DNA of 40,000 nt from Paucisalibacillus globulus. GTDB lineage: Bacteria > Bacillota > Bacilli > Bacillales > Amphibacillaceae. The stretch covers positions 31,547 through 71,546 of the forward strand of contig NZ_LT855384.1 of assembly GCF_900184735.1 (NCBI RefSeq), in the 5' to 3' direction. The translations under genes and the position numbers were made by a program. Under the pieces are notes generated by a model, which was not told the origin of the DNA, ran no database searches, and was given only the letters and a program-made list of their open reading frames with translations. This document shows, piece after piece, positions 1,569-37,866 of the stretch. How positions within the stretch are numbered: the stretch's first letter is position 1; the number at the start of each line of letters is the position of its first letter.

Positions 1569-2512
1569 TGTCTCAGAGATACAAATACTCAGATGAAGAA
1601 ATTGAGTATGTTCGTAAAATTGCCCCTGGTAAATACAACGACGAAATTGCAGCTTTATTCAATGAAAAATTCGGTACTCAAGTAACAGAAAGCCAAATGA
1701 AAAGTTTAAAGTCGAATCACAAAATTAAAAGTAATGTTCCTAAGTATAAGCCGGATGAAAATTCGGGACTGTTTACTAAAGAACAAAAGGACTTTATTAA
1801 AGCAAACGTAAAGGGTCTGCATAATTACGAACTTGCGGAACTGGTAAATAATATGTTTGGTCTGTCTATTACTGCGCAGCAAATGAACACTTACAAATCG
1901 AACCATAACCTATCCAGCGGTTTAGATGGGCGATTCGAAAAAGGAAGTTCCCCTTGGAACAAAGGGAAGAAGGGACTGCAGATAGGTGGTAAGGAAACGC
2001 AATTCAAAAAAGGGCAACAACCTAAAAACTATAGACCTGTTGGCAGTGAACGTATTGACAGTAAAGACGGCTACATCCTAATAAAAGTTCAAGACCATGG
2101 AACCTATCAAGAAAGATGGCGACATAAGCATGTTGTCGTATGGGAAAAGCATCACGGAAAGAAAGTACCAAAAAACCACGTGATCATGTTTGCAGATAGC
2201 AATAAGCAAAACCTAGATTTGGGCAATCTGATTTTAATTTCTCGAAGCGAACTTGCCCGGATGAATCAGCAGGGATTATTTTCAATGGATCCTGAAGTTA
2301 CGAAAGCAGGTCTTAATTTAGTAAGACTAGGTAATAAAATTATGGACTACGAGTATTTTAGGACGAATCCAGAAGAATTTGAAAGGTACTTAAGGATTGC
2401 TAAAACTAATGGTCTAACGGAACAAGGTTTTATGGCGAGATTAAAACGGGGTTGGAGCTTGGAAGAGGCCTTGTATAAACCGAAGCACTATCGAATGAAA
2501 AGAAGTGAATAA
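1568..2512 (+). CDS. HNH homing-type endonuclease with two tandem N-terminal HTH-like repeats
   Basis: HNH core HKHVVVWEKHHGKKVPKNHVIMFADSNKQNLDLGNLILI. Residues ~7-55 and ~68-117 are repeats (x(E/Q)Q(M)KSxKSNH(K/N)). Confidence 0.85.
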   Translation: MSQRYKYSDEEIEYVRKIAPGKYNDEIAALFNEKFGTQVTESQMKSLKSNHKIKSNVPKYKPDENSGLFTKEQKDFIKANVKGLHNYELAELVNNMFGLSITAQQMNTYKSNHNLSSGLDGRFEKGSSPWNKGKKGLQIGGKETQFKKGQQPKNYRPVGSERIDSKDGYILIKVQDHGTYQERWRHKHVVVWEKHHGKKVPKNHVIMFADSNKQNLDLGNLILISRSELARMNQQGLFSMDPEVTKAGLNLVRLGNKIMDYEYFRTNPEEFERYLRIAKTNGLTEQGFMARLKRGWSLEEALYKPKHYRMKRSE

Positions 2513-2523
2513 GGAGTGTTTAA

Positions 2524-2688
2524 ATGCTTATTTCAAAGAGAAAGTTACAGGATGCTGAAAGATTTGCAGTTAAACTGAACAGTTCAGTAAATAATGTGGT
2601 TTCAAAGGAAGCCGTGCAACAGCATATCAATTATTTAATCAACCATGTCAAAGTACTTGAAGTGATGAGACGAGATAAGAGTAGATAG
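2524..2688 (+). CDS. Small hypothetical ORF (54 aa)
   Basis: ATG 8 nt after SD aaggag. It fills the gap between the HNH and MazG genes. Below the ORF-track size cutoff. Confidence 0.35.
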   Translation: MLISKRKLQDAERFAVKLNSSVNNVVSKEAVQQHINYLINHVKVLEVMRRDKSR

Positions 2689-2699
2689 GAGGGTTTACT

Positions 2700-3026
2700 T
2701 TGGAATTAAACGATTATCAGGAGCTGTCAGCAAGAACCGCAACAAGACATGATTTGGAACTATTGAATTTCGGTTTGGGGATTTCTGGTGAAGCAGGAGA
2801 AGTTGCAGATTTAATTAAGAAATTTTATTTCCATGGACACGATATAGAAATGGATAAGATTAAAAAAGAATTGGGAGATGTACTTTGGTATTTATCCCAG
2901 ATTGCTAGATTGGCAGGATTAACTCTTGAAGAAGTCGCTCAGGGAAACATTGACAAACTTAAAAGGCGATATCCAGAAGGGTTCTCTGTGGAAGCTAGCA
3001 TAAAGCGAGTTGATGAAGATGCTTGA
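2700..3026 (+). CDS. MazG-like nucleotide pyrophosphohydrolase
   Basis: GLGISGEAGEVADLIKK ... KKELGDVLWYLSQIA ... NIDKLKRRY, typical of small all-alpha MazG proteins. TTG start after SD ggaggg. Confidence 0.85.
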   Translation: MELNDYQELSARTATRHDLELLNFGLGISGEAGEVADLIKKFYFHGHDIEMDKIKKELGDVLWYLSQIARLAGLTLEEVAQGNIDKLKRRYPEGFSVEASIKRVDEDA

Positions 3027-3417
3027 GATTGTACAAGGTTCTTTAGACCACTCTAAAGAAGTTATGAAAAAGACTTTATCCATTACTAAACAGAATTTGT
3101 CCAATCTTAAGAAGGTCGTTAAGCCCAAGGATCGGACTAAAATGCATAAACAACAAATTAAGGAAATGGAAGCATTGGTGCACTTCTTCAGGGTATCACG
3201 AATGCAGCCTGTCTACATTGATAGTATATGCATCAATTATATGTTATATGTCCAACTTATGAAAAAACTTAAAAACTATCAAGTTGAAGAATTCATAGCG
3301 GATAACAAGCTAGTTATCTCTTACTCTAATAAATCTACAAAAGGCAGATTTGAACTTTATGACATCTCAGATAAGTTACAAGGATTAAACTTCTTTCCGA
3401 AGGCTGTCATACGATGA
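3013..3417 (+). CDS. Hypothetical phage protein
   Basis: Open frame overlapping the MazG stop. Start is ambiguous (3010/3013/3019). No motif recognised. Confidence 0.5.
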   Translation: MKMLEIVQGSLDHSKEVMKKTLSITKQNLSNLKKVVKPKDRTKMHKQQIKEMEALVHFFRVSRMQPVYIDSICINYMLYVQLMKKLKNYQVEEFIADNKLVISYSNKSTKGRFELYDISDKLQGLNFFPKAVIR

Positions 3418-3539
3418 GAAAGCCTAAATGGACACTGTTGTTTCGTGTTGAAGGTGAACACCAGGTGTACCTCTATGAACCTCTTAGAAAGTACGAGTTA
3501 AATGCTAGAAAGCGGCAAGGTTGGAAGGTTATTGCATAG
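3414..3539 (+). CDS. Small hypothetical ORF (41 aa)
   Basis: ATGA overlap with the preceding stop. MRKPKWTLLFRVEGEHQVYLYEPLRKYELNARKRQGWKVIA. It fills an otherwise empty gap. Confidence 0.3.
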   Translation: MRKPKWTLLFRVEGEHQVYLYEPLRKYELNARKRQGWKVIA

Positions 3540-3554
3540 AAAGTAGGTGAGTGT

Positions 3555-4484
3555 ATGTCAAATAAAGCTTTAATGGAGCTAGGGGCTCTTCCAGGAATGA
3601 TGGCTGTTAAAATGCAAGTGGAACAAATTATACAGCTGAAGAAAATTGCTAAGTTACGGGCGCAACAAGGGCTTAAGAATCAGAATCAATCTAACCATTT
3701 AATTTTTACAGGAAGCCCCGGTACCGGTAAAACAACTGCAGCTAGATTAATAGGTGAAGCATTCTCATCCTTAGGCATTTTAAAATCAGAGGACTATAAT
3801 AATCCTTTTATCGAAATCCACCATGCAGACATTACATCTTCATTGGTGGGTGAAGCAGAGAGAAATATAAAGGATAAGTTTGAAGAAGCAAGAGGCGGGG
3901 TTTTATTCATTGATGAGGCTTACGCATTTATAGGCGGTGAAAAGTCTCATAAATCCGGAGAAAAGGTAATTGCCACTATTGTGCAGCTTATGGAAGATTT
4001 ACGAGAAGAAGTGATGGTTATTATTGCAGGGTACGCAAATGAGATTGATGAATTTTTAGACTCGAATCCTGGACTTCGTTCACGCTTTTCGAATACGGTG
4101 CATTTTCCGGATTACTCAGTACCGGACATGCTTCAGATTGCACAGAAAATGTTAACAGATCAAGATTACCAAGCAGACAATGAATACTTAGGAGCCTTGG
4201 CTAATCGGTTATGGTTTGAAAAAGATAAAAAGGGTTTCGGGAATGCGCGTACGGTTCGTAACATATTGGAAGAATCGATTCGGATGCATTCCGTGCGAAT
4301 TGCACAGATGGAGTATCCAAGTCGGGAGGATTTAATGCTTCTTACAAAAGTTGATCTAGAATCAAACAGGCATCACATGTTATCAGAAAAAGAAATCTTA
4401 CAAAAGGCCATGAAGCAGATGCAAACTAGATTACTAGAGTTTGAGCTTCAGGATATTATTTCACGAAAAAGTACAGTTGAGTAG
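3555..4484 (+). CDS. AAA+ ATPase, SpoVK/CbbX family
   Basis: Walker A GSPGTGKTT, Walker B LFIDEAY, IIAGY...FLDSNPGLRSRF...FPDYS. Collinear by eye with B. subtilis SpoVK. Confidence 0.9.
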   Translation: MSNKALMELGALPGMMAVKMQVEQIIQLKKIAKLRAQQGLKNQNQSNHLIFTGSPGTGKTTAARLIGEAFSSLGILKSEDYNNPFIEIHHADITSSLVGEAERNIKDKFEEARGGVLFIDEAYAFIGGEKSHKSGEKVIATIVQLMEDLREEVMVIIAGYANEIDEFLDSNPGLRSRFSNTVHFPDYSVPDMLQIAQKMLTDQDYQADNEYLGALANRLWFEKDKKGFGNARTVRNILEESIRMHSVRIAQMEYPSREDLMLLTKVDLESNRHHMLSEKEILQKAMKQMQTRLLEFELQDIISRKSTVE

Positions 4485-4492
4485 GTGAGAAC

Positions 4493-6916
4493 ATGGCATT
4501 ACAATATGACAGACAAATAACAATATCCGCTGGGAATAGTCGTAAGGCTACCCAGTGGCCTGCTCAGGTCTTATATTGGTCCGACATGGTAGAAAAGCTG
4601 AAGACTGCAGTAAGAGGTAAGGAAACACTGGAAGAGTATCTGAAGCTACCAAAACGTGACCAAGATGAATTAAAAGACGTTGGTGGATTTGTTGGTGGGG
4701 AGCTTATCAATAACCGCCGGAAAGCTTCCAACGTAAAGAATAGGGATATTATCACACTTGATTTAGACAATATACCTGCAGGTGGAACAGAGGATATCCT
4801 TAGACGTTTAGAAGGCTTAGGGTGTGCCTATGCAACGTACAGTACGCGTAAGCATGAGCCTAATAAACCACGTTTAAGAGTCCTGGTTCCCTTAAGCAGA
4901 ACAGCTACTGCAGATGAATATGAACCGTTAGCGCGGAAACTAGCTTCTATTATCGGGATGAGTTTTGCAGATCCTACGACTTTTGAAGCTTCAAGACTTA
5001 TGTATTGGCCAAGTTGTTCATCCAACAGTCAATATGTATTCCATTACGGCGATAAGCCTTTTCTTGATACAGACGCGCTCCTTGCTACCTATGGGGACTG
5101 GCGCAACATCCTGGAGTGGCCTCAAGTACCTGGTGCAGGTGAGTCTCATGTAAGACTTGCAGCAAAGCAAGGTAACCCTTTGGAAAAAAGAGGGGTTATA
5201 GGAGCGTTCTGTAGACAATATGATATTCATTCTGCTATTGAAACGTTCTTACCTGGCGTATATTTGCCTACAGATGATGGAAGTGGTAGATATACCTTTG
5301 TGGATGGCTCAACAGTTGGTGGTGCTGTTATCTATGAGGATGGGTTATTTCTTTATTCCCACCATGCTACGGATCCTTGCAGCGGGAAACTAGTCAATGC
5401 GTTTGACCTGGTAAGGCTGCATAAGTATGGAGACTTGGACGATGATGCAAAGCCGGAAACTCCGGTGAATAAATTACCTTCTTTCGTACAAATGGCTTCT
5501 TTTGCATTAAATGATGTTGGCGTTGCGAACATCTTAAATCAAGAGCGCTATGAACAAGCAATAGAGGATTTTGGGGCTCCCAACGATACTCCAGCAACGA
5601 AAGAGGACTACAACTGGATCCAACAGTTAAAAGTTAGCCCTTCTACTGGACAACCTCAGAAGACCATTGAAAATGCTGCCATTGCGCTAGACGGGGATCC
5701 TAATTTAAAGGGCAAGATTAAAATGGATGCCTTTGCCGATACGATTATAGGTGTAGCTCCTTTTCCATGGGCTCCAAGGGAAAAAGAAGAAGGAGAATTC
5801 CGTTGGACTGATACGGATGATTCCGGGCTCCGGAGTTACTTAGAGAAGATACTTGGCTTTCGTGTACGTGACATTATAAATGATGCGTTGGTACTTGTTG
5901 CTGCAAAGAATCGTTTCAACCCCGTTGCAGACTATTTGAATAGTTTACAGTGGGATGGGGTGAAGCGGTTGGATACTTTATTTATCGAGTATTTAGGGGC
6001 TGCAGATACGCCTTATACTCGAGCTGTAACTCGTAAGTCTTTTGTTGCTGCCGTATCCCGTGCCATGCATCCCGGTATTAAATATGACACCATGCCCGTT
6101 TTAACTGGTTCTCAAGGACTTGGGAAAACAACTCTTATTCAAAAGATGGGAAAAGCGTGGTTTACCAATAGTATTGAGTCGTTTGAAGGGAAAGAAGCAG
6201 CGGAATTGTTGCAAGGTGTTTGGATCGTAGAAATAGGGGAAATGAGTGCTTATAGTAAGTCGGATGTAAACACGATTAAAGGGTTCTTAAGTCGTACAGA
6301 GGACCAGTATAGAGCTGCTTATGCACGTAAAACAGAGAAACACCCTAGACGTTGTGTATTCTTTGGTACCAGTAACCGAAATGACTATTTAAAGGATCCT
6401 ACGGGAGGTAGACGTTTTCTTCCAATTGATGTAGGTATCCAGCAACCGGTTAAAAGTGTTTTCGAACATTTAGATATGGAAGTGGAACAATTGTGGGCGG
6501 AGGCCGTGATGTATTGGCGACTAGGCGAGTCCCTATTTCTAACTGGAGAGCTTGCAGAAGAGGCGAAAAGGCAACAGGAAGGACATTCTGAACAAGATCC
6601 TTGGGAAAGTGTTATACGTGAATTTGTAGAACGTAAGGTGCCTGTAGATTGGAGTAAAAAGGATATTTCTACTAGGAAACTCTATTGGACAAGTGACTTT
6701 GGAACACCTGATACAGAGCTTGTAGAAAGAGACCGGATATGTGCTGCAGAAATCTGGGTGGAGTGTTTCAATGAAAAAGTTAACCGGATGAAGCGGTCGG
6801 AAACGATGAGAATTAATGACGTGTTAAACAACATAGAAGGTTGGGAAAAGAAACCGAGTCCTTTTCGATTTGGTCCTTATGGGTTGGTGAAAGGTGGATA
6901 TTTAAGGGTAAACTAG
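4493..6916 (+). CDS. Replicative primase-helicase: N-terminal AEP primase-polymerase fused to a VirE/D5-type SF3 helicase
   Basis: AEP-like ITLDLDN (DxD) and LYSHH (sxH) motifs in the N-terminal half. P-loop GSQGLGKTT and WIVEIGEM in the C-terminal half. Confidence 0.85.
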   Translation: MALQYDRQITISAGNSRKATQWPAQVLYWSDMVEKLKTAVRGKETLEEYLKLPKRDQDELKDVGGFVGGELINNRRKASNVKNRDIITLDLDNIPAGGTEDILRRLEGLGCAYATYSTRKHEPNKPRLRVLVPLSRTATADEYEPLARKLASIIGMSFADPTTFEASRLMYWPSCSSNSQYVFHYGDKPFLDTDALLATYGDWRNILEWPQVPGAGESHVRLAAKQGNPLEKRGVIGAFCRQYDIHSAIETFLPGVYLPTDDGSGRYTFVDGSTVGGAVIYEDGLFLYSHHATDPCSGKLVNAFDLVRLHKYGDLDDDAKPETPVNKLPSFVQMASFALNDVGVANILNQERYEQAIEDFGAPNDTPATKEDYNWIQQLKVSPSTGQPQKTIENAAIALDGDPNLKGKIKMDAFADTIIGVAPFPWAPREKEEGEFRWTDTDDSGLRSYLEKILGFRVRDIINDALVLVAAKNRFNPVADYLNSLQWDGVKRLDTLFIEYLGAADTPYTRAVTRKSFVAAVSRAMHPGIKYDTMPVLTGSQGLGKTTLIQKMGKAWFTNSIESFEGKEAAELLQGVWIVEIGEMSAYSKSDVNTIKGFLSRTEDQYRAAYARKTEKHPRRCVFFGTSNRNDYLKDPTGGRRFLPIDVGIQQPVKSVFEHLDMEVEQLWAEAVMYWRLGESLFLTGELAEEAKRQQEGHSEQDPWESVIREFVERKVPVDWSKKDISTRKLYWTSDFGTPDTELVERDRICAAEIWVECFNEKVNRMKRSETMRINDVLNNIEGWEKKPSPFRFGPYGLVKGGYLRVN

Positions 6917-7222: not shown

Positions 7223-7510
7223 TTGAGAGAGAAAGAAATAGAGGAGTATCTCCGTAAAGAAGTTAAAAAAGCCGGAGGCAAAGCATATAAATTTGAGTCA
7301 CCAGGAAACGATGGTGTACCGGATCGCATAGTTGTGTTTCCAGGAAACAGAATTTATTTCATCGAGTTGAAAGCACCAGGTAAAAAACCTAGACCGTTAC
7401 AGGTAAAACAGATGCGAGATTTACGAAATTTTGGATGTAAAGCAGATGTGATTGATAGCAAGGAAAAGGTTGATAACTTTATAGAGTTGGTGAAACAGCG
7501 TGAAATTTAA
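7223..7510 (+). CDS. VRR-NUC domain nuclease
   Basis: GVPDRIVVF...IYFIELKAPGKKPRPLQ (D...ExK core). Typical pairing with the downstream SNF2 helicase. Confidence 0.8.
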   Translation: MREKEIEEYLRKEVKKAGGKAYKFESPGNDGVPDRIVVFPGNRIYFIELKAPGKKPRPLQVKQMRDLRNFGCKADVIDSKEKVDNFIELVKQREI

Positions 7511-8876
7511 ACCGCATAGCTACCAACGATACAACATCAATCGAATACTAGGAAGCCCTAATATCGGTCTTTGGTTGGATATGGGACTTGGGAAAACTGT
7601 TATCACGTTAACAGCCATCAACGATTTAAAATACAACCGGTTCGCGGTGAATAAAGTCTTGGTTATCGCACCGAAAAAAGTAGCACAGGGCACCTGGACA
7701 AACGAAGCTAAGAAGTGGGACCACTTAAAGTTATTACGATTTTCCATTGTGTTAGGATCCCAGGCCAAGAGAATTAAGGCCTTAAACACACCTGCAGATG
7801 TGTACATTATCAACCGGGATAACGTGGTATGGCTAGTAGACTATTACAGGAATAGTTGGCCCTTTGACATGGTTGTCCTGGACGAGTCTAGTAGCTTCAA
7901 GAATCACAACTCGAAGCGGTTTAAAGCATTGAAACAGATTAAGCCACACATCAAACGACAGGTACAGCTAACCGGCACCCCTTCCCCGAATGGCTTACTG
8001 GATATCTGGTCCCAGATTTATTTATTAGACGGTGGCCAGCGATTAGGTAAGACCATCGGAGGATTCCGGGAACGATATTTTGAACCGGATCAACGTAATC
8101 GGGACAGAGTTTTCACCTATGCACCGAAAGACGGGGCAGACAACCGAATACACCAACTTATCGGGGATATAGTGGTGAGTATGAAGGCAGAGGATTACAT
8201 CGAGCTTCCACCGGTTACATACAACACGGTACCGGTAGTCCTGGACGATAAGGCGAAAAAAGCATATGAGAAGTTGGAGAAGGAAATGCTTCTTGAAGTA
8301 GACGAAGCGGAAATAACGGCAGCATCAGCTGCAGTACTTGGAAATAAGCTTTTACAGCTTTGTAACGGGGCCGTCTATGACGAGGATAGAAATGCAATCG
8401 AGATTCATAACAACAAGATGGAATCCTTCTTGGAGCTAATCGAAGCATTAAACGGATCCCCGGCATTAGTCTTTTATAACTTCCAACATGATAAGAGTCG
8501 GATTCAACAAGCCCTGGCCAAAACGAATTTACGAGTACGAGAGTTGAAGACGGCTGAGGATGAAGCGGATTGGAACAACAAAGAGATAGATGTACTTCTT
8601 GCACATCCAGCTTCAGCCGGCTACGGATTGAATTTACAAGAGGGTGGAAACCATGTTATCTGGTTTGGTCTGAACTGGAATCTAGAACTCTACCAACAGG
8701 CTAATGCGAGATTAGCAAGACAGGGGCAAAAGGAAAAAGTATTCATCCACCGGTTAACCGTTTTAGGAGGGATGGATGAAAACGTAGAGGCAGCACTTGA
8801 AAATAAAGCTGCAACACAGGAAAGTCTTTTATCAGCATTGAAGGCAAGAATCGAAAAGGTAAAAGAGGGGGCTTAG
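7500..8876 (+). CDS. SNF2/DEAD-like family helicase
   Basis: Motif I LDMGLGKT, motif II VLDESSSFKN, motif III LTGTPSPN, C-terminal AGYGLNLQ and QANARLARQGQ. Confidence 0.9.
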   Translation: MKFKPHSYQRYNINRILGSPNIGLWLDMGLGKTVITLTAINDLKYNRFAVNKVLVIAPKKVAQGTWTNEAKKWDHLKLLRFSIVLGSQAKRIKALNTPADVYIINRDNVVWLVDYYRNSWPFDMVVLDESSSFKNHNSKRFKALKQIKPHIKRQVQLTGTPSPNGLLDIWSQIYLLDGGQRLGKTIGGFRERYFEPDQRNRDRVFTYAPKDGADNRIHQLIGDIVVSMKAEDYIELPPVTYNTVPVVLDDKAKKAYEKLEKEMLLEVDEAEITAASAAVLGNKLLQLCNGAVYDEDRNAIEIHNNKMESFLELIEALNGSPALVFYNFQHDKSRIQQALAKTNLRVRELKTAEDEADWNNKEIDVLLAHPASAGYGLNLQEGGNHVIWFGLNWNLELYQQANARLARQGQKEKVFIHRLTVLGGMDENVEAALENKAATQESLLSALKARIEKVKEGA

Positions 8877-8878
8877 CA

Positions 8879-9403
8879 ATGAAGTTGACCGATAAACAGT
8901 TAAAATTAATCACCGATATTGCTTCACAAAATGCCATTAAAGCGTACAGAGAGGACCAAGTAAAACGAGAAAAGGAAAAGCATGATACACGCTTACGTAA
9001 CATCAAATTGCTGTTGAAACATTACAGATCGTTAGTACTTCATTGTGAAAAGCTTGAAGAGGACTTAGTAAAGTTTGAAGATACATCTATCCAAGACCTG
9101 GACATTAAAGAAATAAACCTTGAAAGCATTGAGTCTATCAAGCAAAGTAAAACCAAAAGCTTGGCTATGGTGTATTTCGTTAGAGGGAAGATGGAAGCTT
9201 ATAAGAGGTCTTGTGATGAAGAGGAAATGAAGTATTTTCGAGTGCTAGAGATGCGATACATTACGTCTAAAAAGTATACCATTCAAGATATAGCGGATGA
9301 AGAAAATGTGGACGTGAGAACGGTCCACCGGTATTTAAATAGGGCCTTGGAAGAATTACCAGTAATATTCTTTGGAGTAGATGCTATTCAGTTTGAAAAG
9401 TAG
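8879..9403 (+). CDS. Putative phage (late) transcriptional regulator with C-terminal sigma region-4-like HTH
   Basis: C-terminal YTIQDIADEENVDVRTVHRYLNRALEEL. It is the last gene before the packaging module. The family assignment is not verifiable here. Confidence 0.5.
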   Translation: MKLTDKQLKLITDIASQNAIKAYREDQVKREKEKHDTRLRNIKLLLKHYRSLVLHCEKLEEDLVKFEDTSIQDLDIKEINLESIESIKQSKTKSLAMVYFVRGKMEAYKRSCDEEEMKYFRVLEMRYITSKKYTIQDIADEENVDVRTVHRYLNRALEELPVIFFGVDAIQFEK

Positions 9404-31173: not shown

Positions 31174-31434
31174 ATGACTATACAAGAACTTGCTAGCTTA
31201 ATGGCAGTGATTTCGTTTCTTGGCGGAATCGCTATTTTTTTGTTTAAAAGTATTGTTATTAAACCGTTACAAACCTCGATTGATTTACTCAACGATACTT
31301 TAAAAAGTTTTAAGATTAGGACCGACAAAGAACTTGAATTGCTTGATTCAAAAGTTAATTCTCTAGAGAAAAAAACAACCAGACATGATGAGCAAATAAA
31401 AACACTTTTTTCGAAGGGAGGTGAGCACAAATGA
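31174..31434 (+). CDS. XhlA-like membrane protein (holin-associated)
   Basis: N-terminal TM helix LMAVISFLGGIAIFLF followed by a coiled coil. Lies before the holin gene. Confidence 0.75.
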   Translation: MTIQELASLMAVISFLGGIAIFLFKSIVIKPLQTSIDLLNDTLKSFKIRTDKELELLDSKVNSLEKKTTRHDEQIKTLFSKGGEHK

Positions 31435-31712
31435 AAATCAACTGGAAAGTAAGATTCAAAAACCCAGTATTCTATACACAATTAATTCTATCAATCCTGG
31501 TACCTATTATTGGGTATATGGGAATTAGATTTGAGGATTTAACAACTTGGGTGGTATTAGGTGATGTACTTGTACAAGCCTTATCAAACCCTTACGTAGT
31601 AGCGCTTGTCCTAGTCAGTGTTTGGAATGCACTCAATGATCCAACAACTAAAGGATTAAGTGATAGTATTCAAGCACGAAATTATAAAAAACCGAGAGGA
31701 GATGTTGAGTAA
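31431..31712 (+). CDS. Holin (phi LC3 / XhlB-like)
   Basis: [15 protein letters not shown]..., two TM helices, C-terminal [10 protein letters not shown]. Confidence 0.78.
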
Positions 31713-32539
31713 TGGGAGTAACATTTATTTACCCAACAGTAAAAAGAATAACAAGTCATTTTAGTAAGAGTAGACCGCATCCGATAACTGGTGTGGTCTC
31801 TTTTCATTCTGGAACAGACTTCGCACAACCTGGACGTCAGGAAATTAAAGCAGCTGCAGCTGGAAGGGTTGTAAAGTCTTATGTAAGCACCTCATATGGT
31901 GAATGCATTATCATACGTCATAATATTAAAGGGCAAACTTGGGAAACACTCTATGCACATATGCTTAGTGGCTCTCGTAGAGTACATGTTGGTGATATTG
32001 TTAAGCAGGGAGAAGTTATTGGACTTATGGGAAGTACCGGTGATTCTACAGGCCAACATCTACACTTTGAAATTCATAGGGGTACCTGGAACAGTCAAAG
32101 AAGCAACGCGGTCAACCCTGTTGATTACTTGAACAAGGATCTGTATCCTGTATCTGCTTCCGGTAATGTATATGTCGTAAAAGCTGGGGACACACTTTCA
32201 AAAATTGCTAAGAATCACGGCACAACGGTTGATGTACTTGTTAAACTAAATAAAATTAAGGACAAAAATTTGATTTTTGTTGGCCAAAAAATTAAGTTGC
32301 CAGGTAGCAAAGGTGAAACTCTTTATCTACCAAAAACGGAGTCAAGATGGAGAGTTTATCCAACTAATAAAGCACCAGTTAAAGGTAATGAAAAAGGCTT
32401 CTTGAATCCTAAGAAGTTTGGTGGACTGCAATATCAAGTGCTTGATAAACCTCAAGCTCATGTAGTAACTATTCAGACTCAAGACTTTGGTAAGGTTAAT
32501 ATCTATGTGCATCCTTCCACAGGTGCTACAATTAAATAA
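31712..32539 (+). CDS. Endolysin: M23 peptidase + LysM + C-terminal binding domain
   Basis: FHSGTDFA ... [16 protein letters not shown] (M23 metal site). LysM domain [29 protein letters not shown]...VGQKIKLP. Confidence 0.9.
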
Positions 32540-32640
32540 ACTAAAATAAGCATAGACAACTTATTCTAGTATAGAATTCATGGGGGTCTGGTGGACCACT
32601 TAGAAGGAGTTCGGAAAAGCTCTGGATATAAAATAAGACC

Positions 32641-32678
32641 AAAAAAAATCCCTCTTGTGGAAGCAGGAGGGATTTTTA
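32641..32678. terminator. Strong bidirectional rho-independent terminator closing the lysis operon
   Basis: atccctcttg-tggaag-caggagggat 10-bp stem flanked by A8 and T5. Confidence 0.7.
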
Positions 32679-32698
32679 AAATAAGGACCTAAAAACTA

Positions 32699-32727
32699 TA
32701 TACAAAGTATTTTCTACATGCTATCAT
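32699..32727 (+). promoter_or_regulatory. Putative sigma-A promoter with an extended -10
   Basis: TATACA (-35), 17 nt spacer, TGcTATCAT (extended -10). Confidence 0.45.
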
Positions 32728-32728
32728 A

Positions 32729-32742
32729 GGAACGTACGTTCC
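32729..32742. promoter_or_regulatory. Perfect 14-bp palindrome matching the Bacillus LexA (Cheo) box core GAAC-N4-GTTC
   Basis: GGAACGTACGTTCC, starting 2 nt downstream of the putative -10. Confidence 0.55.
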
Positions 32743-32782
32743 AATTGGAAACGTTTTTACAAAAAAGCAGGAAAATAGTCAT

Positions 32783-32814
32783 CTTTTGTAGAATATGTAA
32801 TTTATCTACAAAAG
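32783..32814 (+). promoter_or_regulatory. 10-bp inverted repeat whose 3' arm runs into the SD of the downstream gene
   Basis: cttttgtaga-(12 nt)-tctacaaaag, immediately followed by ggggataaatATG. Confidence 0.5.
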
Positions 32815-32824
32815 GGGGATAAAT

Positions 32825-33748
32825 ATGGATTTAAATAATATAATTCAAAAACTGCGGGAATTTCAAGAACCAGATGGAAGGTTATCTGTTTTATTTGTAT
32901 CAAAGAATGGCACAAGATATAGTTCGTTCGAACCAAGTGTTTCTAATGATGTACAGAAGGAAGTCATTAAATTATTTATTGAAAATATAGACCATAAAAT
33001 ACAAGCTAACCTTAACTCGGTTACATTCAATCCAAGTGGGCATGAGAATGATGAATATTCAGTATGTGATACAGATTATGTTGGAAATTATTCTGAAGTT
33101 ATCAACTTGTTTGATGAAACAGTTACCGAAGAAATGGATCCGAACAAAGTTAGTTTCTTAGTATTTAAACTAAGAATAAATAATAATGGTGAAGATCCGA
33201 AGTTTATTTATTTCTTTAGAAAAAACCACAAGTTAAAAAGTATTCGCAAAGGTTTCTGGATTAGAAAAGTTGCTGATACATTTAATATACTAGAAGATAA
33301 TAAATTGATAGCAATAGACGGGGGAATCGATGCTATCTCCTTAGATAATCAACTTATATTTTTTAGTCATATTGCGGCTGAACGTATATTCAACCTAAGA
33401 GAGAAGTTTAAAGAAAACGCTCAATTAGTACTAAGAGAAGTACAAGGTGGTACGAAGATCGAAAACTTCGATCAATTTAAGGAGGATTGTTTAGGTGATG
33501 CAAGAATCATTAGAAGACTCACTAAAATACAATCTAATCCAGAAATTATAAGGTTGTTTCACGAGCATTTCGACAACGCACCTGAGGTTGTGGAATTGTT
33601 TGATTTAAATATTAAATTCAATGATGAAAAATCAAAAATTATTTATGACGACAAAGAACAATTAACTGATATAACAATGTTAATGAGAGATGCATATTAT
33701 AGAACAGTCCTGGCAAATAGAAAAGGGATAGATGATTTTAATATCTAA
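32825..33748 (+). CDS. Accessory soluble protein, 307 aa; possibly DUF4868/KwaB-like (unverified)
   Basis: Strong SD and an AT-rich gene. No TM helix or catalytic motif recognised. Size and overall pattern are reminiscent of KwaB-type proteins. Confidence 0.75.
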   Translation: MDLNNIIQKLREFQEPDGRLSVLFVSKNGTRYSSFEPSVSNDVQKEVIKLFIENIDHKIQANLNSVTFNPSGHENDEYSVCDTDYVGNYSEVINLFDETVTEEMDPNKVSFLVFKLRINNNGEDPKFIYFFRKNHKLKSIRKGFWIRKVADTFNILEDNKLIAIDGGIDAISLDNQLIFFSHIAAERIFNLREKFKENAQLVLREVQGGTKIENFDQFKEDCLGDARIIRRLTKIQSNPEIIRLFHEHFDNAPEVVELFDLNIKFNDEKSKIIYDDKEQLTDITMLMRDAYYRTVLANRKGIDDFNI

Positions 33749-33776
33749 TTTAAGGTAAAGGAGGTAAAACTAGAAA

Positions 33777-34307
33777 ATGATAACAAAAACTTACAAGGTG
33801 CTATTATTTGTCTCATCATTTTTACCTCTATATGTAATATTAATTGTGAAATTTTATGACTTTGAACAAAGCATTAAAGAGAATTTATTAGAACACTATG
33901 TAACATTTGGATTCTTTATGGTGTTAATTTTGATTTCACTATTAACATTTTTGTACTTTTGCTTCTGTGAATTGAACTCTGAAGAAACTTTCCACGGATT
34001 GGAGAATAAAAATAGTGAAATTTTAAGTTACTTTATTACCTACGTAGTACCACTTACTACCTTAGAAGAAGGAAATTTAAATTCAATTATAATAAATGCC
34101 TTATTATTTTTAGTTATTGGTATTTTCTATGTTAATAGTAATTTGTTTTATCTAAATGTTTTGTTTACTATATTCGGTTTTAATGTCTATCAAGATAGCG
34201 AAAACAAAATTATAATCTCAAGAAAGAGTGCAGATAAAATAACTAACAACACATATATTAATGTAAAAAAGGTAGGAAAGAAAATTTATATAGTTAATAA
34301 AAAGTAG
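33777..34307 (+). CDS. Accessory polytopic membrane protein, 176 aa (~4 TM helices); possible KwaA-like partner (unverified)
   Basis: SD aaaggaggt. Hydrophobic helices at about residues 7-24, 42-63, 104-119 and 123-135. Lysine-rich C-terminal tail. Confidence 0.78.
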   Translation: MITKTYKVLLFVSSFLPLYVILIVKFYDFEQSIKENLLEHYVTFGFFMVLILISLLTFLYFCFCELNSEETFHGLENKNSEILSYFITYVVPLTTLEEGNLNSIIINALLFLVIGIFYVNSNLFYLNVLFTIFGFNVYQDSENKIIISRKSADKITNNTYINVKKVGKKIYIVNKK

Positions 34308-34325
34308 CCCCATAACTATGGGGCT
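34306..34325. terminator. Hairpin between convergent genes (works best as the minus-strand terminator)
   Basis: agcccca-taacta-tggggct. A T-run follows on the minus strand only. Confidence 0.5.
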
Positions 34326-34672
34326 TACTCATTCCAAGGACGATCTTTAACTTCAAATCTTGCAGCCTTTTTCCCGTGTGAATAATCAGTCATTAACTGC
34401 TTTGTCATTTCCTTCAATTCTTCAGGTTTAAATTCCACCATTTCTTTATTAATTTCATACTTTCCCTTTTTGATACGTTTAATTTCAATATGATGCTTGG
34501 TTAATAATTCAGTTTTAATTTTAAAATAGTCCTGGTGCATTCGTTCGATTATCGAATCAATCATATCTTCGTAAAGATTCCTCAATTGAAATTCACTGAA
34601 CTTCTCTTTATCCTGTTTAAAAACTGCTATAGCCATAGGTATGGCGATGTACTTTTTGATTAGTTCTTCCAT
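34325..34672 (-). CDS. Hypothetical protein (115 aa)
   Basis: K/E-rich helical protein. Weak SD ggaagtg 6 nt before ATG. No motif recognised. Confidence 0.6.
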   Translation of the reverse strand: MEELIKKYIAIPMAIAVFKQDKEKFSEFQLRNLYEDMIDSIIERMHQDYFKIKTELLTKHHIEIKRIKKGKYEINKEMVEFKPEELKEMTKQLMTDYSHGKKAARFEVKDRPWNE

Positions 34673-34823
34673 CCGTTACACTTCCATTTTCAAAATATCG
34701 CTTTAACATAGGATCTTTTCTGTCGAGGTATTCAAACGCATCTTGTTCAGAAGGTGTGGCCCCGGGGTAAACAATTCTTCTTCCATCAAAATATGGCTGA
34801 AATTCTTCTTTTTCTTTTTCCAT
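34617..34823 (-). CDS. Hypothetical protein (68 aa) overlapping the next gene by 56 nt
   Basis: Strong SD aaggagtg before ATG at 34823. The C-terminal ~18 aa lie over the start of the downstream gene in another frame. Confidence 0.5.
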   Translation of the reverse strand: MEKEKEEFQPYFDGRRIVYPGATPSEQDAFEYLDRKDPMLKRYFENGSVTDGRTNQKVHRHTYGYSSF

Positions 34824-34962
34824 TTTAATTCACTCCTTAATTATCTTAGTATAATAATTCGATAATTTGAAGCTGTAACCCTGCATAGAAAAGGAGTTTT
34901 CAACTTATTTTGAAATTAGTGATTTTGTTGGTGTTCTATAGTTGTTTTCAGGAAAAGTTTCC

Positions 34963-35178
34963 TTATAAGAAGGTTTTTCTGTTATTATGTTCCCTCTCAA
35001 CCAAATCATCTAAACTACATCCGATTATATCTGCTATTTCTGCAGCCTTTAAAAGGGTAATTTTTCTACGCCCATGAATGTACCTGGAAATATTATTTTC
35101 ATCTTCCCCTAGAGCTTTTGCTACTTGCCTATTAGTAAAGCCGTTCTCTTTAATGGCTTCCCCGATTCTTAATTTCAT
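34963..35178 (-). CDS. XRE-family HTH transcriptional regulator
   Basis: FTNRQVAKALGEDENNISRYIHGRRKITLLKAAEIADIIGCSLDDLV. ATG at 35178 after SD aaggtga. Divergent from the FtsK-like gene. Confidence 0.85.
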   Translation of the reverse strand: MKLRIGEAIKENGFTNRQVAKALGEDENNISRYIHGRRKITLLKAAEIADIIGCSLDDLVEREHNNRKTFL

Positions 35179-35430
35179 TATGATCACCTTTTTATTATTT
35201 CGATATTTACCTGGTAAAATCCTTTATTCAAAAAAAGTTATACCATTTTGGCATAGTATAAGATGTGGCACCATACAATCTAATATGCAAACCAAAATAC
35301 AACGACTGCAGCAAAGATTGTACTTTTAGAATGGGCGCAAATCTTTAAAATTAAGCTATTCTAGCCGTTTTACCAAGTTGCAATAGCCAAGGGACTATCT
35401 TTACAAGATACCAAGAATGGAGGTGCGTGA

Positions 35431-36684
35431 ATGCTATTCGAGTTATTGTCTACAGCAAGCATGGCAGGAATTGCTGGAACAAGTTTTTATTTTAAAAACA
35501 AAAACGCTGCTAACGATCATGAAAAAATTATTAAGATTGCTGACTATGCAGGTCTTAAAACAAAGGAAGGGAGTATCCGAATTTATCGGAAAACAAAGCA
35601 TAAGAACCACACGGAATACGTTTATAAAGTTCCTCTAGGGTTATCTTTTCAACAGTTTAAGGATGTAGAACAAAAATTTATTGATGGCCTAAATAATAAA
35701 AGTCGACCGGATCTTAATCTAGCAAACTTAAAAAATATTGACTGGAAGGGAGATGTCGTAAAGCAATTAAAAGATATTATTCAGAATCGAGTAAAGCTTG
35801 ATAAAAAGATAGAAATGGAGTTTGATGGGATGCTAAAAATACGAGTCTATGAAAAAGGTTTAGAAAAGCTTTATTTATTTGATGAAAAAATGTTAGGAAA
35901 AGTAAGAGGATGGAAGGTACCAATAGGCTTCACTTATAAAGACTTTATTTTGCATGATTTTGAAGAGAGACCTCACATGATTGTAGCCGGAGCTACTGGC
36001 TTCGGAAAATCTGAATTTGTGAAACTATTAATCTCAGTTTTGGTAAGCAATAAACCAGATCAAGTACGCTTCCATTTAATCGATTTAAAAGGCGGGGCAG
36101 AATTAGGGCCTTTCCGGGACATGAAGCAGGCTATTAATTTTGGTAGAAATGTGAAGGAAGCAAAAGTAGTTCTAGAAGCCATTCAAGAAGATATGAATAA
36201 CAAGCTCGAATACCTATTTGAAAAAGGATTCAAAGATATTAAAAGAGCAGGTCAAAAAGAAAGAGATTTTATTGTGATTGATGAAGCTGCAGATCTGGAT
36301 GACGAATGTAAAGAATTAGTTACGGATATCTCGAGAAGAGGAAGGGCGGCTGGCTACAGACTCATATACACGACCCAGTACCCAACGAACGAGACGCTCC
36401 CGTCTCAAGTACGTGCCAACATTGGAGCTAGAGTATGTTTTCGACTAGAAACAGGTGCTCAGAGCAGAGCTGTATTAGATGAAAACGGAGCGGAAGATAT
36501 TCCAGAGATTGAAGGTAGAGCCATCTTTAGAAGGGTGAGAAATTATATAGTCCAAACTCCATATATGGAAGAAGAAATGATAAATAAAATTATTAAACCT
36601 CACATCATCAAGAAGGAGGGTTTAGGTGCGACCAAAGACACTAGAACGCCAAGAGCAAATCCTTTTGAGTTTAAAGAATCTTGA
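35431..36684 (+). CDS. FtsK/SpoIIIE-family DNA translocase (TraB/coupling-protein-like), with an N-terminal TM helix
   Basis: Walker A VAGATGFGKSE, Walker B FIVIDEAADL, GRAAGYRLIYTTQYP, and an N-terminal hydrophobic segment. Confidence 0.9.
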   Translation: MLFELLSTASMAGIAGTSFYFKNKNAANDHEKIIKIADYAGLKTKEGSIRIYRKTKHKNHTEYVYKVPLGLSFQQFKDVEQKFIDGLNNKSRPDLNLANLKNIDWKGDVVKQLKDIIQNRVKLDKKIEMEFDGMLKIRVYEKGLEKLYLFDEKMLGKVRGWKVPIGFTYKDFILHDFEERPHMIVAGATGFGKSEFVKLLISVLVSNKPDQVRFHLIDLKGGAELGPFRDMKQAINFGRNVKEAKVVLEAIQEDMNNKLEYLFEKGFKDIKRAGQKERDFIVIDEAADLDDECKELVTDISRRGRAAGYRLIYTTQYPTNETLPSQVRANIGARVCFRLETGAQSRAVLDENGAEDIPEIEGRAIFRRVRNYIVQTPYMEEEMINKIIKPHIIKKEGLGATKDTRTPRANPFEFKES

Positions 36685-37219
36685 TTACCTCACTGTTAAG
36701 CAAATTCAAATCTTGCATGGGTTGGGCTTTAGGAATACCTATCGAATTCTAGATCAAATGGAGCCCTATCTAAACCACTTTTATGACGGACAGAAAATCT
36801 ATTACCTTAGCAAAGAAGGTCGCGAAAAAATAAACTGCAGCACTATCCGAACTAAAATTATCACAGCAAAACATTACCTAATGCGCAATGATCTCTATAT
36901 ACAACTCAACCAACCAAAAGACTGGAAGAATGAAGTTAAGCTAATCAGTGGAGAAGGAACAAAGGCAGAAATTGTTGTTATTCCAGATGCCAGGTTCATC
37001 CGCAATGGGAAGTACCACATTATTGAAATAGACAATCAGCAAAAAATGAAAAAGAACAAAGTAAAAATTGATAAGTATAGGAGATTCATAGAAAGAAATT
37101 CATTCAAAGGTATGCCTAAGATCATATGGGTAACAACTACACCATACAGAAGAGACAGTTTACTAGAATTGTGCGAGGGGTTGGATGTTGATGTTTTCTT
37201 GGATACTGATATCAACTAA
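36626..37219 (+). CDS. Replication-relaxation family protein
   Basis: N-terminal winged-helix-like ILLSLKNLDYLTVKQIQILHG and a PDARF...IEIDN pattern. GTG start after SD ggaggg. Typical partner of FtsK-like genes. Confidence 0.75.
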   Translation: MRPKTLERQEQILLSLKNLDYLTVKQIQILHGLGFRNTYRILDQMEPYLNHFYDGQKIYYLSKEGREKINCSTIRTKIITAKHYLMRNDLYIQLNQPKDWKNEVKLISGEGTKAEIVVIPDARFIRNGKYHIIEIDNQQKMKKNKVKIDKYRRFIERNSFKGMPKIIWVTTTPYRRDSLLELCEGLDVDVFLDTDIN

Positions 37220-37328: not shown

Positions 37329-37523
37329 TTGAAACTGACTAACCTGAAAATGACAGATAGCGAAAAGGAATCAATGATTAGGATAACTGCAGAGAAAATT
37401 AAAGACCTAAAGTCTTATGGATCCATGGAAGAATTTGCCCATCTCGCTAACCTGTTGTATGTATATCAAAAGCTAACAGGAAAGAATTATGAGGAGGTAG
37501 AACATGCGGACAAAAACTTATGA
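37329..37523 (+). CDS. Hypothetical protein (64 aa)
   Basis: TTG start 5 nt after SD aggagggg. Confidence 0.5.
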   Translation: MKLTNLKMTDSEKESMIRITAEKIKDLKSYGSMEEFAHLANLLYVYQKLTGKNYEEVEHADKNL

Positions 37524-37866
37524 TTTTAAGGAGTTTATGCGAGGTGAACATGAAGTAGTCAAACCACCTACTTTATCGTTAATGCCTTTAGCAGCTGCTC
37601 CGTTTATTCCTGGAACTGTTTATGCAGCTGATGAATCGGTTAAAGCCAAAATGATGGATGCTTTTAATCCACTAATAGAATTAATACAAGGTCTAGCCTA
37701 CCCAGTAGCCATGGTTGTTGTTTTAGGCGGTGCCATATTCGTTATGATAGGAAACAGTGATAAAGGCTTTAGTATGATGCAGAAGGCCGGAATGGGCTAT
37801 TTACTAGTAATGATTGCTCCAATGGTTCTAGATGTGTTAGTCGATTCAATGGACGGTGTGGTTTAA
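37504..37866 (+). CDS. Secreted/membrane protein with a signal peptide and two TM helices (T4SS pilin-like topology)
   Basis: SD gaggagg. Signal-like LSLMPLAAAPFIPGTVYA-AD, then AYPVAMVVVLGGAIFVMIG and GMGYLLVMIAPMVLDVLV. Confidence 0.65.
   Translation: MRTKTYDFKEFMRGEHEVVKPPTLSLMPLAAAPFIPGTVYAADESVKAKMMDAFNPLIELIQGLAYPVAMVVVLGGAIFVMIGNSDKGFSMMQKAGMGYLLVMIAPMVLDVLVDSMDGVV

Follow-up and report, generated by a model that had tools for sequence, protein, structure and literature searches.

A 40,000-nt stretch of the Paucisalibacillus globulus genome (contig NZ_LT855384.1, positions 31,547 to 71,546, hereafter called the window) carries within a prophage, directly after the endolysin gene, two adjacent genes coding for a soluble protein of 307 residues and a membrane protein of 176 residues. 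A preliminary description, made from the DNA sequence alone, had proposed either a Kiwa-like pair, with a KwaB/DUF4868 protein and a KwaA protein of about four transmembrane (TM) helices, or an undescribed membrane-coupled defence module. We asked which of the two is correct and how such a cassette might act and be controlled in a prophage. With a probability of about 0.9, the gene pair codes for a Kiwa anti-phage system that belongs to the kwaB-kwaA lineage of Bacillota, and it is an accessory cargo element (a moron) of the P. globulus prophage. The system itself is a known one, recognised by PADLOC and by the Pfam families PF16162 and PF28043 and partly annotated by NCBI, and the residual novelty is a candidate LexA operator at its promoter. 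Positions given below are those of the window, and the coordinates of the features are collected in Table 1.

Identity of the two proteins

The two open reading frames (ORFs) are co-directional on the + strand with a gap of 28 nt, and a terminator scan found no terminator between them. Each ORF is preceded by a Shine-Dalgarno (SD) sequence, AAGGGGGA at 32812-19 with a spacing of 5 nt to the ATG for kwaB and AAAGGAGG at 33757-64 for kwaA, the latter with a rather long spacing of 12 nt. This layout agrees with the preliminary description, and the suggested likeness to KwaB and KwaA was borne out by hidden Markov models (HMMs), by profile searches against the Protein Data Bank (PDB) and by predicted folds, as follows.

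The product of gene 1 matched the PADLOC KwaB model PDLC00231 over residues 1-304 (E 4e-77) and the Pfam DUF4868 family PF16162 ('Kiwa protein KwaB-like') over residues 108-296 (E 2.8e-24), with a score of 86.6 bits compared to a gathering score of 26.3. Hydropathy analysis confirmed that it contains no TM segment, as had been stated before, the maximal 19-residue Kyte-Doolittle score being 1.12. The AlphaFold2 model, built with 24 homologues, has a predicted local distance difference test (pLDDT) score of 83 and exhibits strands and helices alternating over residues 1-180, followed by an all-helical region from 182 to 296. The predicted protein has, in this model, the two domains expected of KwaB, an N-terminal Rossmann-like alpha/beta domain and a helical C-terminal domain. 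When the model was compared with the PDB using Foldseek, the six matches with E <= 0.001 were all KwaB chains (9nyu, 9mrx_D, 9mtn), with E values from 1e-10 to 3e-9 and TM-scores of 0.50-0.58 over about 310 columns at 14% identity, and the next match had an E value of 0.4. The structural search was needed to reach the E. coli KwaB proteins, because phmmer and profile searches of KwaB against the PDB sequences did not reach those chains and returned spurious repeat-protein matches only. A very diverse KwaB alignment was too divergent to yield search patterns and a narrower one was used; single-protein KwaB pattern scans of genome contigs and viral contigs gave no match. The NCBI protein that is 100% identical to gene 1 (Paucisalibacillus globulus) is named 'Kiwa anti-phage protein KwaB-like domain-containing protein'.

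In the same way, the product of gene 2 matched 12 PADLOC KwaA models, the best with an E value of 2.5e-44 and over the full length, and a profile of 23 KwaA homologues retrieved the KwaA structures 9o0i and 9mrg from the PDB at about 1e-7. Hydropathy revealed hydrophobic segments at residues 5-29, 37-68 and 98-130, and 10 Lys or Arg residues lie within the last 37 residues, which fits a cytoplasmic location of the C-terminus. In the predicted model, four helices (2-26, 41-63, 79-93 and 101-118) are accompanied by six short strands, two in the TM2-TM3 loop (67-70 and 75-77) and four in the Lys-rich C-terminus (136-140, 145-148, 161-165 and 170-173). The four hydrophobic helices and the Lys-rich tail read earlier from the translation are therefore present, and the model combines four TM helices with beta-barrel elements from the TM2-TM3 loop and the C-terminus, in agreement with the four helices and the six-stranded cytosolic barrel published for E. 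coli KwaA (PMC11785009). Foldseek returned seven significant PDB matches, all of them KwaA chains, with TM-scores of 0.64-0.76 and 21-24% identity. Among the comparisons that had been recommended for the pair, the fold searches thus gave, as significant matches, KwaB structures only for gene 1 and KwaA structures only for gene 2. PHROG matches also support Kiwa, and precomputed Pfam assignments of the homologues are PF16162 and, for KwaA, PF28043.

Several observations count against a simple assignment to Kiwa. Both proteins scored below the cutoffs of the NCBIfam equivalogs, with 48 bits for a cutoff of 200 for KwaB (NF041623) and 73.6 bits for a cutoff of 100 for KwaA (NF041622). With the E. 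coli proteins of known structure, KwaB shares only 14% identity and KwaA 21-24%, and the confidence of the KwaA model is modest (pLDDT 63). Comparison of the KwaB profile with the canonical Emticicia KwaB using hhalign gave a probability of only 45% (E 2e-4), compared to 95.5% for the KwaA profile and Emticicia KwaA. The sub-cutoff scores, taken together with the hhalign probabilities, point to a diverged lineage of the Kiwa family and not to a different system; both proteins are homologous yet outside the narrow, Proteobacteria-type equivalog set of NCBI, consistent with the NCBI names 'KwaB-like domain-containing' for KwaB and 'hypothetical' for the 100%-identical P. globulus entry of KwaA. 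An undescribed membrane-coupled module unrelated to Kiwa, the other proposal of the preliminary description, can be dismissed almost with certainty, since nothing apart from the missed equivalog cutoffs was found in its favour and it is contradicted by the full-length PADLOC, Pfam and PHROG matches, by structural matches exclusively to KwaA and KwaB and by the KwaB-like name already given by NCBI.

The best studied relatives are the Kiwa systems of E. coli O55:H7 RM12579 and of ECOR strains (9mrg, 9mrr, 9mrx, 9mtn, 9nyu; PMC11785009), which have the same two components and the same folds as the window pair, coded by adjacent genes in one operon and often located on prophages, plasmids and islands. 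They differ by a longer KwaA (about 195 residues compared to 176), by the host, which is Gram-positive for the window, by the LexA-type box carried by the window promoter and by the gene order, kwaA-kwaB in the Proteobacterial and Bacteroidota loci examined compared to kwaB-kwaA in the window.

Gene order of kwaB and kwaA

The order of the type system, kwaA then kwaB, which is also the annotated order in a Salmonella record and on an Emticicia plasmid, is reversed in the window, where kwaB precedes kwaA. We therefore looked at this order in 34 distinct loci with a KwaB 29-70% identical to that of the window, originating from Bacillaceae, Paenibacillaceae, Clostridia, Negativicutes, sequenced temperate phages and one plasmid. 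The kwaA gene lies immediately 3' of kwaB in 33 of the 34 loci; the other locus is cut off behind kwaB by the end of its contig. To our knowledge, gene order is not a formal criterion for Kiwa in PADLOC or DefenseFinder. A Kiwa system of Streptococcus thermophilus 90730, reported as 'kwaB, kwaA' on consecutive ORFs, protects against lactococcal phages by 4-5 log (PMC11514479), so membership of the Kiwa family does not depend on the order of the genes. The 33 loci together with this active pair indicate that kwaB-kwaA is the normal, functional order of the Bacillota lineage. The soluble-then-membrane order given in the preliminary description was thus correct, but what it regarded as an inversion is documented here as a lineage-wide rule in Bacillota and is no anomaly, and its suggestion of a possible new variant was not upheld, as all loci with sequence 3' of kwaB have the same order and such a pair is active (PMC11514479).

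The S. thermophilus system (St90730_688/689; PMC11514479) resembles the window pair in coming from Bacillota, in being listed as kwaB, kwaA and in its size of 1553 bp, compared to 1483 bp for the window pair; it lies in a chromosomal CRISPR-associated defence island, whereas the window pair lies in a prophage. The closest homologues are the kwaBA operons of Virgibacillus litoralis, Lentibacillus persicus, Salimicrobium salexigens, Numidum massiliense and Lysinibacillus spp., with 52-70% identity for KwaB and 57-69% for KwaA. Their lengths and gene order are identical to those of the window, and one Lysinibacillus locus (L007) also has an extended -10 element and a LexA box. They differ by their sites, which are located before terminase genes in prophages or beside a type I restriction-modification (R-M) system with a resolvase, and by the lack of a LexA box in most of them.

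Mode of action and promoter

E. coli Kiwa is a membrane supercomplex of KwaA tetramers and KwaB dimers, and the system needs both genes; the complex is located where phages attach and reacts when a phage or conjugation disturbs the membrane (PMC11785009). E. coli KwaB binds DNA non-specifically via DUF4868, without cleavage, so that replication and hence late transcription stall; the defence is non-abortive, the cells surviving, and Gam-type DNA mimics inhibit KwaB (PMC11785009). The matching folds and operon support the same mode of action for the window pair. By analogy, KwaA tetramers in the cytoplasmic membrane would act as sensor and anchor, and KwaB dimers would attach to their cytosolic beta-barrel, which combines the TM2-TM3 loop with the Lys-rich C-terminus, to give a membrane supercomplex. 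KwaB, as the DNA-binding effector, would then bind incoming DNA through DUF4868 and stall replication, and thereby late transcription, without cell death, which would shield the lysogen, and hence its prophage, from other phages and plasmids. Complex formation, trigger and DNA binding are all drawn here from the E. coli work, and two considerations weigh against a complete equivalence: the Gram-positive envelope has no outer membrane and the E. coli trigger may not transfer unchanged; and, given the low identity and the hhalign score, details of the mechanism and the residues of the KwaA-KwaB interface may differ.

A promoter scan of the 285-nt intergenic region upstream of kwaB gave, by consensus match, an extended -10 promoter as the best + strand candidate. 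Two nucleotides after its TGcTATCAT element lies a GAAC-N4-GTTC core, GAACGTACGTTC, at 32730-32741, which places at the promoter/start region of kwaBA a match to the B. subtilis LexA operator, GAACN4GTTC (PMC4234289). The LexA-type box announced in the preliminary description is thus present, but it is the single one in the window, where 0.45 are expected and at least one occurs in 36% of shuffles, and it is not significant alone.

The comparative survey adds support. Six exact boxes were found in 371 kb (window and loci), three of them within 100 nt upstream of kwaB, at -95 in the window, -92 in the Lysinibacillus locus L007 and -57 in a Bacillus sp. locus (L014). The Paenibacillus locus L011 has a box with one mismatch, GAAC-N4-GTTT, on the opposite strand at -101. 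In total, 4 of the 34 operons have a box in the 150 nt upstream of kwaB, compared to 0.21 expected (Poisson P ~7e-5). In the three loci with an exact box it follows a TGn-extended -10 hexamer by 2 nt, and the surrounding sequence has diverged. Because synonymous sites are saturated between the loci, retention of the box at -92 to -101 in three of them suggests selection. Against this stands the absence of the box from 30 of the 34 homologous operons.

Transcription would start from the extended -10 promoter, with the start region overlapped by the LexA-type operator; host LexA would hold kwaBA down and expression would rise in the SOS response, for example upon prophage induction or entry of foreign single-stranded DNA. 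We consider SOS control of this particular operon plausible and lean slightly towards it; such control is clearly not shared by Kiwa systems at large. More tentatively, a subset of Bacillales might have wired Kiwa into the host SOS response, the LexA operator keeping kwaBA low in the resting lysogen and derepression following DNA damage, prophage induction or single-stranded DNA entry, an idea to which we give somewhat less than an even chance. In such a subset, Kiwa would block superinfection and conjugation upon damage or induction, and would not be a constitutive sentinel. The recurrent operator at kwaBA promoters, if real, would define an SOS-gated membrane-sensing defence and bear on the timing of prophage defence cargo. 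No link between Kiwa and LexA was found in the literature searched.

The palindrome might, alternatively, not be a LexA site, arising by chance or serving as operator of another (phage) regulator; expression of kwaBA would then be constitutive, as it is in those E. coli systems that have been studied. This explanation deserves serious weight, although we hold it to fall short of an even chance. It accords with the chance-level frequency of one match per 40 kb and with the many homologous loci that have no box. The optimal B. subtilis LexA box is flanked by C...G, whereas the box of the window is flanked by G...C. On the other hand, chance fits poorly with half of the exact boxes in the surveyed DNA lying within 100 nt upstream of kwaB, each at the same 2-nt distance from a -10 hexamer, between loci whose synonymous sites are saturated.

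A further possibility concerns the moment at which the cassette acts. The pair could be Kiwa by descent and yet function mainly in the lytic cycle, LexA derepression upon induction turning it into a superinfection-exclusion or anti-conjugation shield of the phage-producing cell and not into a constitutive defence of the lysogen. The overlap of the operator with the best promoter candidate and the recurrence of the box in kwaBA operons (P ~7e-5) fit such a role. The E. coli system acts on incoming DNA at the membrane without killing (PMC11785009), and the phage's own internal replication should for this reason be spared. We nevertheless judge this restriction to the lytic cycle unlikely, as most kwaBA operons have no box, a second weak promoter or read-through is possible and joint transcription with the late lysis genes is disfavoured by the strong terminator that separates them (32644-32677).

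Between the promoter and the SD sequence of kwaB, which it abuts, the leader contains a 9-bp inverted repeat, which might form a hairpin in the transcript or serve as an operator. At the position of this repeat, some 35-45 nt upstream of kwaB, three other loci (L001, L005 and L006) have a common TTTGTCGAAA motif followed by TAATTA or TATTAA, which looks, from the sequences, like a conserved leader or promoter element travelling with the cassette. The other exact boxes of the surveyed loci also come right after -10-like hexamers: one is located in a Eubacteriaceae prophage (L017, 3130-3141) upstream of a 144-residue ORF (3309-3743) and about 1.9 kb before kwaB, one beside a YolD-like gene of phage phi879 (L009, 7194-7205) and one in Gracilibacillus (L015, 4536-4547), 465 nt upstream of kwaB.

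Cassette mobility and genomic setting

The homologous cassettes occupy varied sites. They lie directly after the endolysin gene in locus L006, in the Staphylococcus phage phi879 (gp51/gp52) and in Mammaliicoccus phages including phi6223; in the other prophages L001, L005 and L007, with early genes on one side and HNH or terminase genes on the other; and beside type I R-M genes in locus L003, with a resolvase, and on the Paenibacillus plasmid L011. The two nearest neighbours on each side, considered over all loci, have no family in common and include resolvases, HNH, terminases, amidases, ResIII, AAA_15/21 and IS66. This variety of settings, before terminase genes, after endolysins, next to type I R-M genes and on a plasmid, makes the cassette mobile cargo, in line with the earlier idea of an accessory element of the prophage and with the report that about half of the Kiwa loci are on mobile elements, including about 200 prophages (PMC11785009). 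A role as holin, lysis accessory or core virion component was rejected because the pair is found in non-lysis slots and in non-phage contexts; the conserved core set of lysis or virion genes that the preliminary description had set against its own proposal is likewise excluded by the varied contexts and the lack of a common neighbour family.

The phages phi879 (Staphylococcus) and phi6223, phi6228 and phi6229 (Mammaliicoccus) have, as the window does, a DUF4868 protein followed by a TM protein of about 175-185 residues, 3' of holin and endolysin. Their KwaB proteins are only 24-29% identical to that of the window and GenBank labels them as DUF4868 or hypothetical proteins, not as Kiwa. The window confirms a temperate Bacillaceae phage as a Kiwa carrier in the post-endolysin cargo slot. 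Among 17 viral contigs with a related M23 endolysin none carried Kiwa; the distance of these relatives is too great for an empty or exchanged slot to be recognised.

Comparison of kwaB and kwaA with their homologues gave proportions of nonsynonymous differences (pN) of 0.17-0.31 and of synonymous differences (pS) of 0.66-0.85, the latter saturated. The large excess of pS over pN reveals purifying selection on both genes and, together with the activity of the S. thermophilus pair, lends indirect support to a need for both in phage protection and in the reduction of conjugation. That the cassette is a decaying or silent passenger without current function is highly improbable in view of this selection, of two full-length ORFs that align with their homologues over the entire length and of intact ribosome-binding sites and an intact promoter candidate; what speaks for it is the lowest GC content of the window, suggestive of a recent horizontal acquisition, the lack of a U-tract terminator 3' of kwaA on the + strand and a related cassette in phage phiCD119 with an apparently truncated kwaA.

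In the Clostridium phage phiCD119 (L008, 3932-5483), gp78, a 99-residue ORF that matches the C-terminal part of KwaA only (E 2e-17), lies about 300 nt 3' of the DUF4868/KwaB gene gp77. The kwaA gene may be truncated or frameshifted in phiCD119 and in its relatives phiCDHM19 and CD1801, with KwaB annotated there as 'putative bacteriocin synthesis protein'. On the plasmid pMUT2 of E. coli Nissle 1917 (L039), an annotated kwaA at 2507-3154 immediately follows the gene for replication initiation; the six-feature gene table contains no kwaB (the PLSDB table is possibly incomplete), and this gene may be a solitary kwaA homologue.

Table 1 Coordinates of the kwaBA cassette, its putative control elements and the flanking features in the window
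Feature	Position	Strand	Description
Holin, Phage_holin_1	31431-31712		Upstream of cassette; PF04531, 5.8e-28
Endolysin, Peptidase_M23+LysM	31712-32539		Upstream of cassette
Intrinsic terminator hairpin (predicted)	32644-32677	+	Fold -21.3 kcal/mol, z -5.89; 0/200 shuffles equally stable
Sigma-A-type promoter candidate	32699-32727	+	TATACA, 17 nt, TGcTATCAT (extended -10); 9/12 matches + TG
LexA-type (Cheo-box) palindrome, putative SOS operator	32729-32742		GGAACGTACGTTCC, 2 nt 3' of -10 hexamer
Leader 9-bp inverted repeat	32784-32813	+	TTTTGTAGA, 12 nt, TCTACAAAA; abuts SD; fold -12.6 kcal/mol, z -3.0
kwaB	32825-33748	+	Soluble, 307 residues; N-terminal alpha/beta domain + C-terminal DUF4868/KwaB domain
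kwaA	33777-34307	+	Membrane protein, 176 residues; ~4 TM helices + six short beta-strands
Hairpin between convergent genes	34303-34329		Fold -15.3 (+), -16.4 (-) kcal/mol, z ~ -4.3

In the window, the pair is preceded by a holin and an M23/LysM endolysin, which confirms the post-endolysin slot assigned to it at first reading. The cassette is also the most AT-rich stretch of the window, as had been noticed, with a GC content of 28.1% compared to 37.4% overall and the lowest value among 771 sliding windows of 1483 bp. Both hairpins said to bracket it as terminators are real, but they are not equivalent. The upstream one, recovered as an inverted repeat in a repeat search as well, is by its predicted structure a good + strand terminator closing the lysis cassette, and with its 5' A-run and 3' T-run it may act bidirectionally. 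The downstream one has a T-run on the minus strand only, where the terminator scan lists it; it is therefore chiefly the terminator of the convergent ORF 34325-34672 and has no U-tract for kwaA. An imperfect 24-nt inverted repeat, 75% complementary, brackets kwaBA (32694-32717 and 34272-34295) and is probably a chance occurrence in AT-rich DNA.

On the 3' side of the cassette come the gene for a helix-turn-helix (HTH) regulator, on the minus strand, and the genes for two further proteins, one FtsK/SpoIIIE-like (phrog_1358, 1.6e-90) and the other of the Replic_Relax 'replication initiation' type (phrog_2190, 3e-57). As the last two belong to phage families, the cassette is internal to the phage genome, and a separate downstream conjugative element was rejected on the strength of the same matches. 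The minus strand from 34325 to 35430, convergent with kwaA, codes for a 115-residue ORF with a weak match to phrog_34234, a 68-residue ORF and a 74-residue HTH_3 regulator. This set is divergent from the FtsK/SpoIIIE-like and Replic_Relax genes (35431-37219), and the whole arrangement (34325-37219) resembles a plasmid-like module for maintenance and regulation within the phage.

A scan of viral contigs found no relatives of the FtsK-like gene, and the region 31400-36700 has no near-identity DNA match among sequenced phages. Neither an integrase nor a tRNA gene was seen within the 40-kb window, and Rfam gave no known RNA family in it. Further downstream, a protein of 120 residues (37504-37866) exhibited a borderline match to TrbC/VirB2 pilins (27.3 bits for a cutoff of 27.9) and strong matches to PHROGs without an assigned function (phrog_5422, 2e-24), by which it is probably a small membrane protein of the phage rather than a pilin. 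The early region of the window codes for a sigma-70-like factor (83-742), a VapE-like primase/helicase (4493-6916, 1.6e-80), an SNF2-family helicase (7500-8876) and a second sigma region-4 protein (8879-9403).

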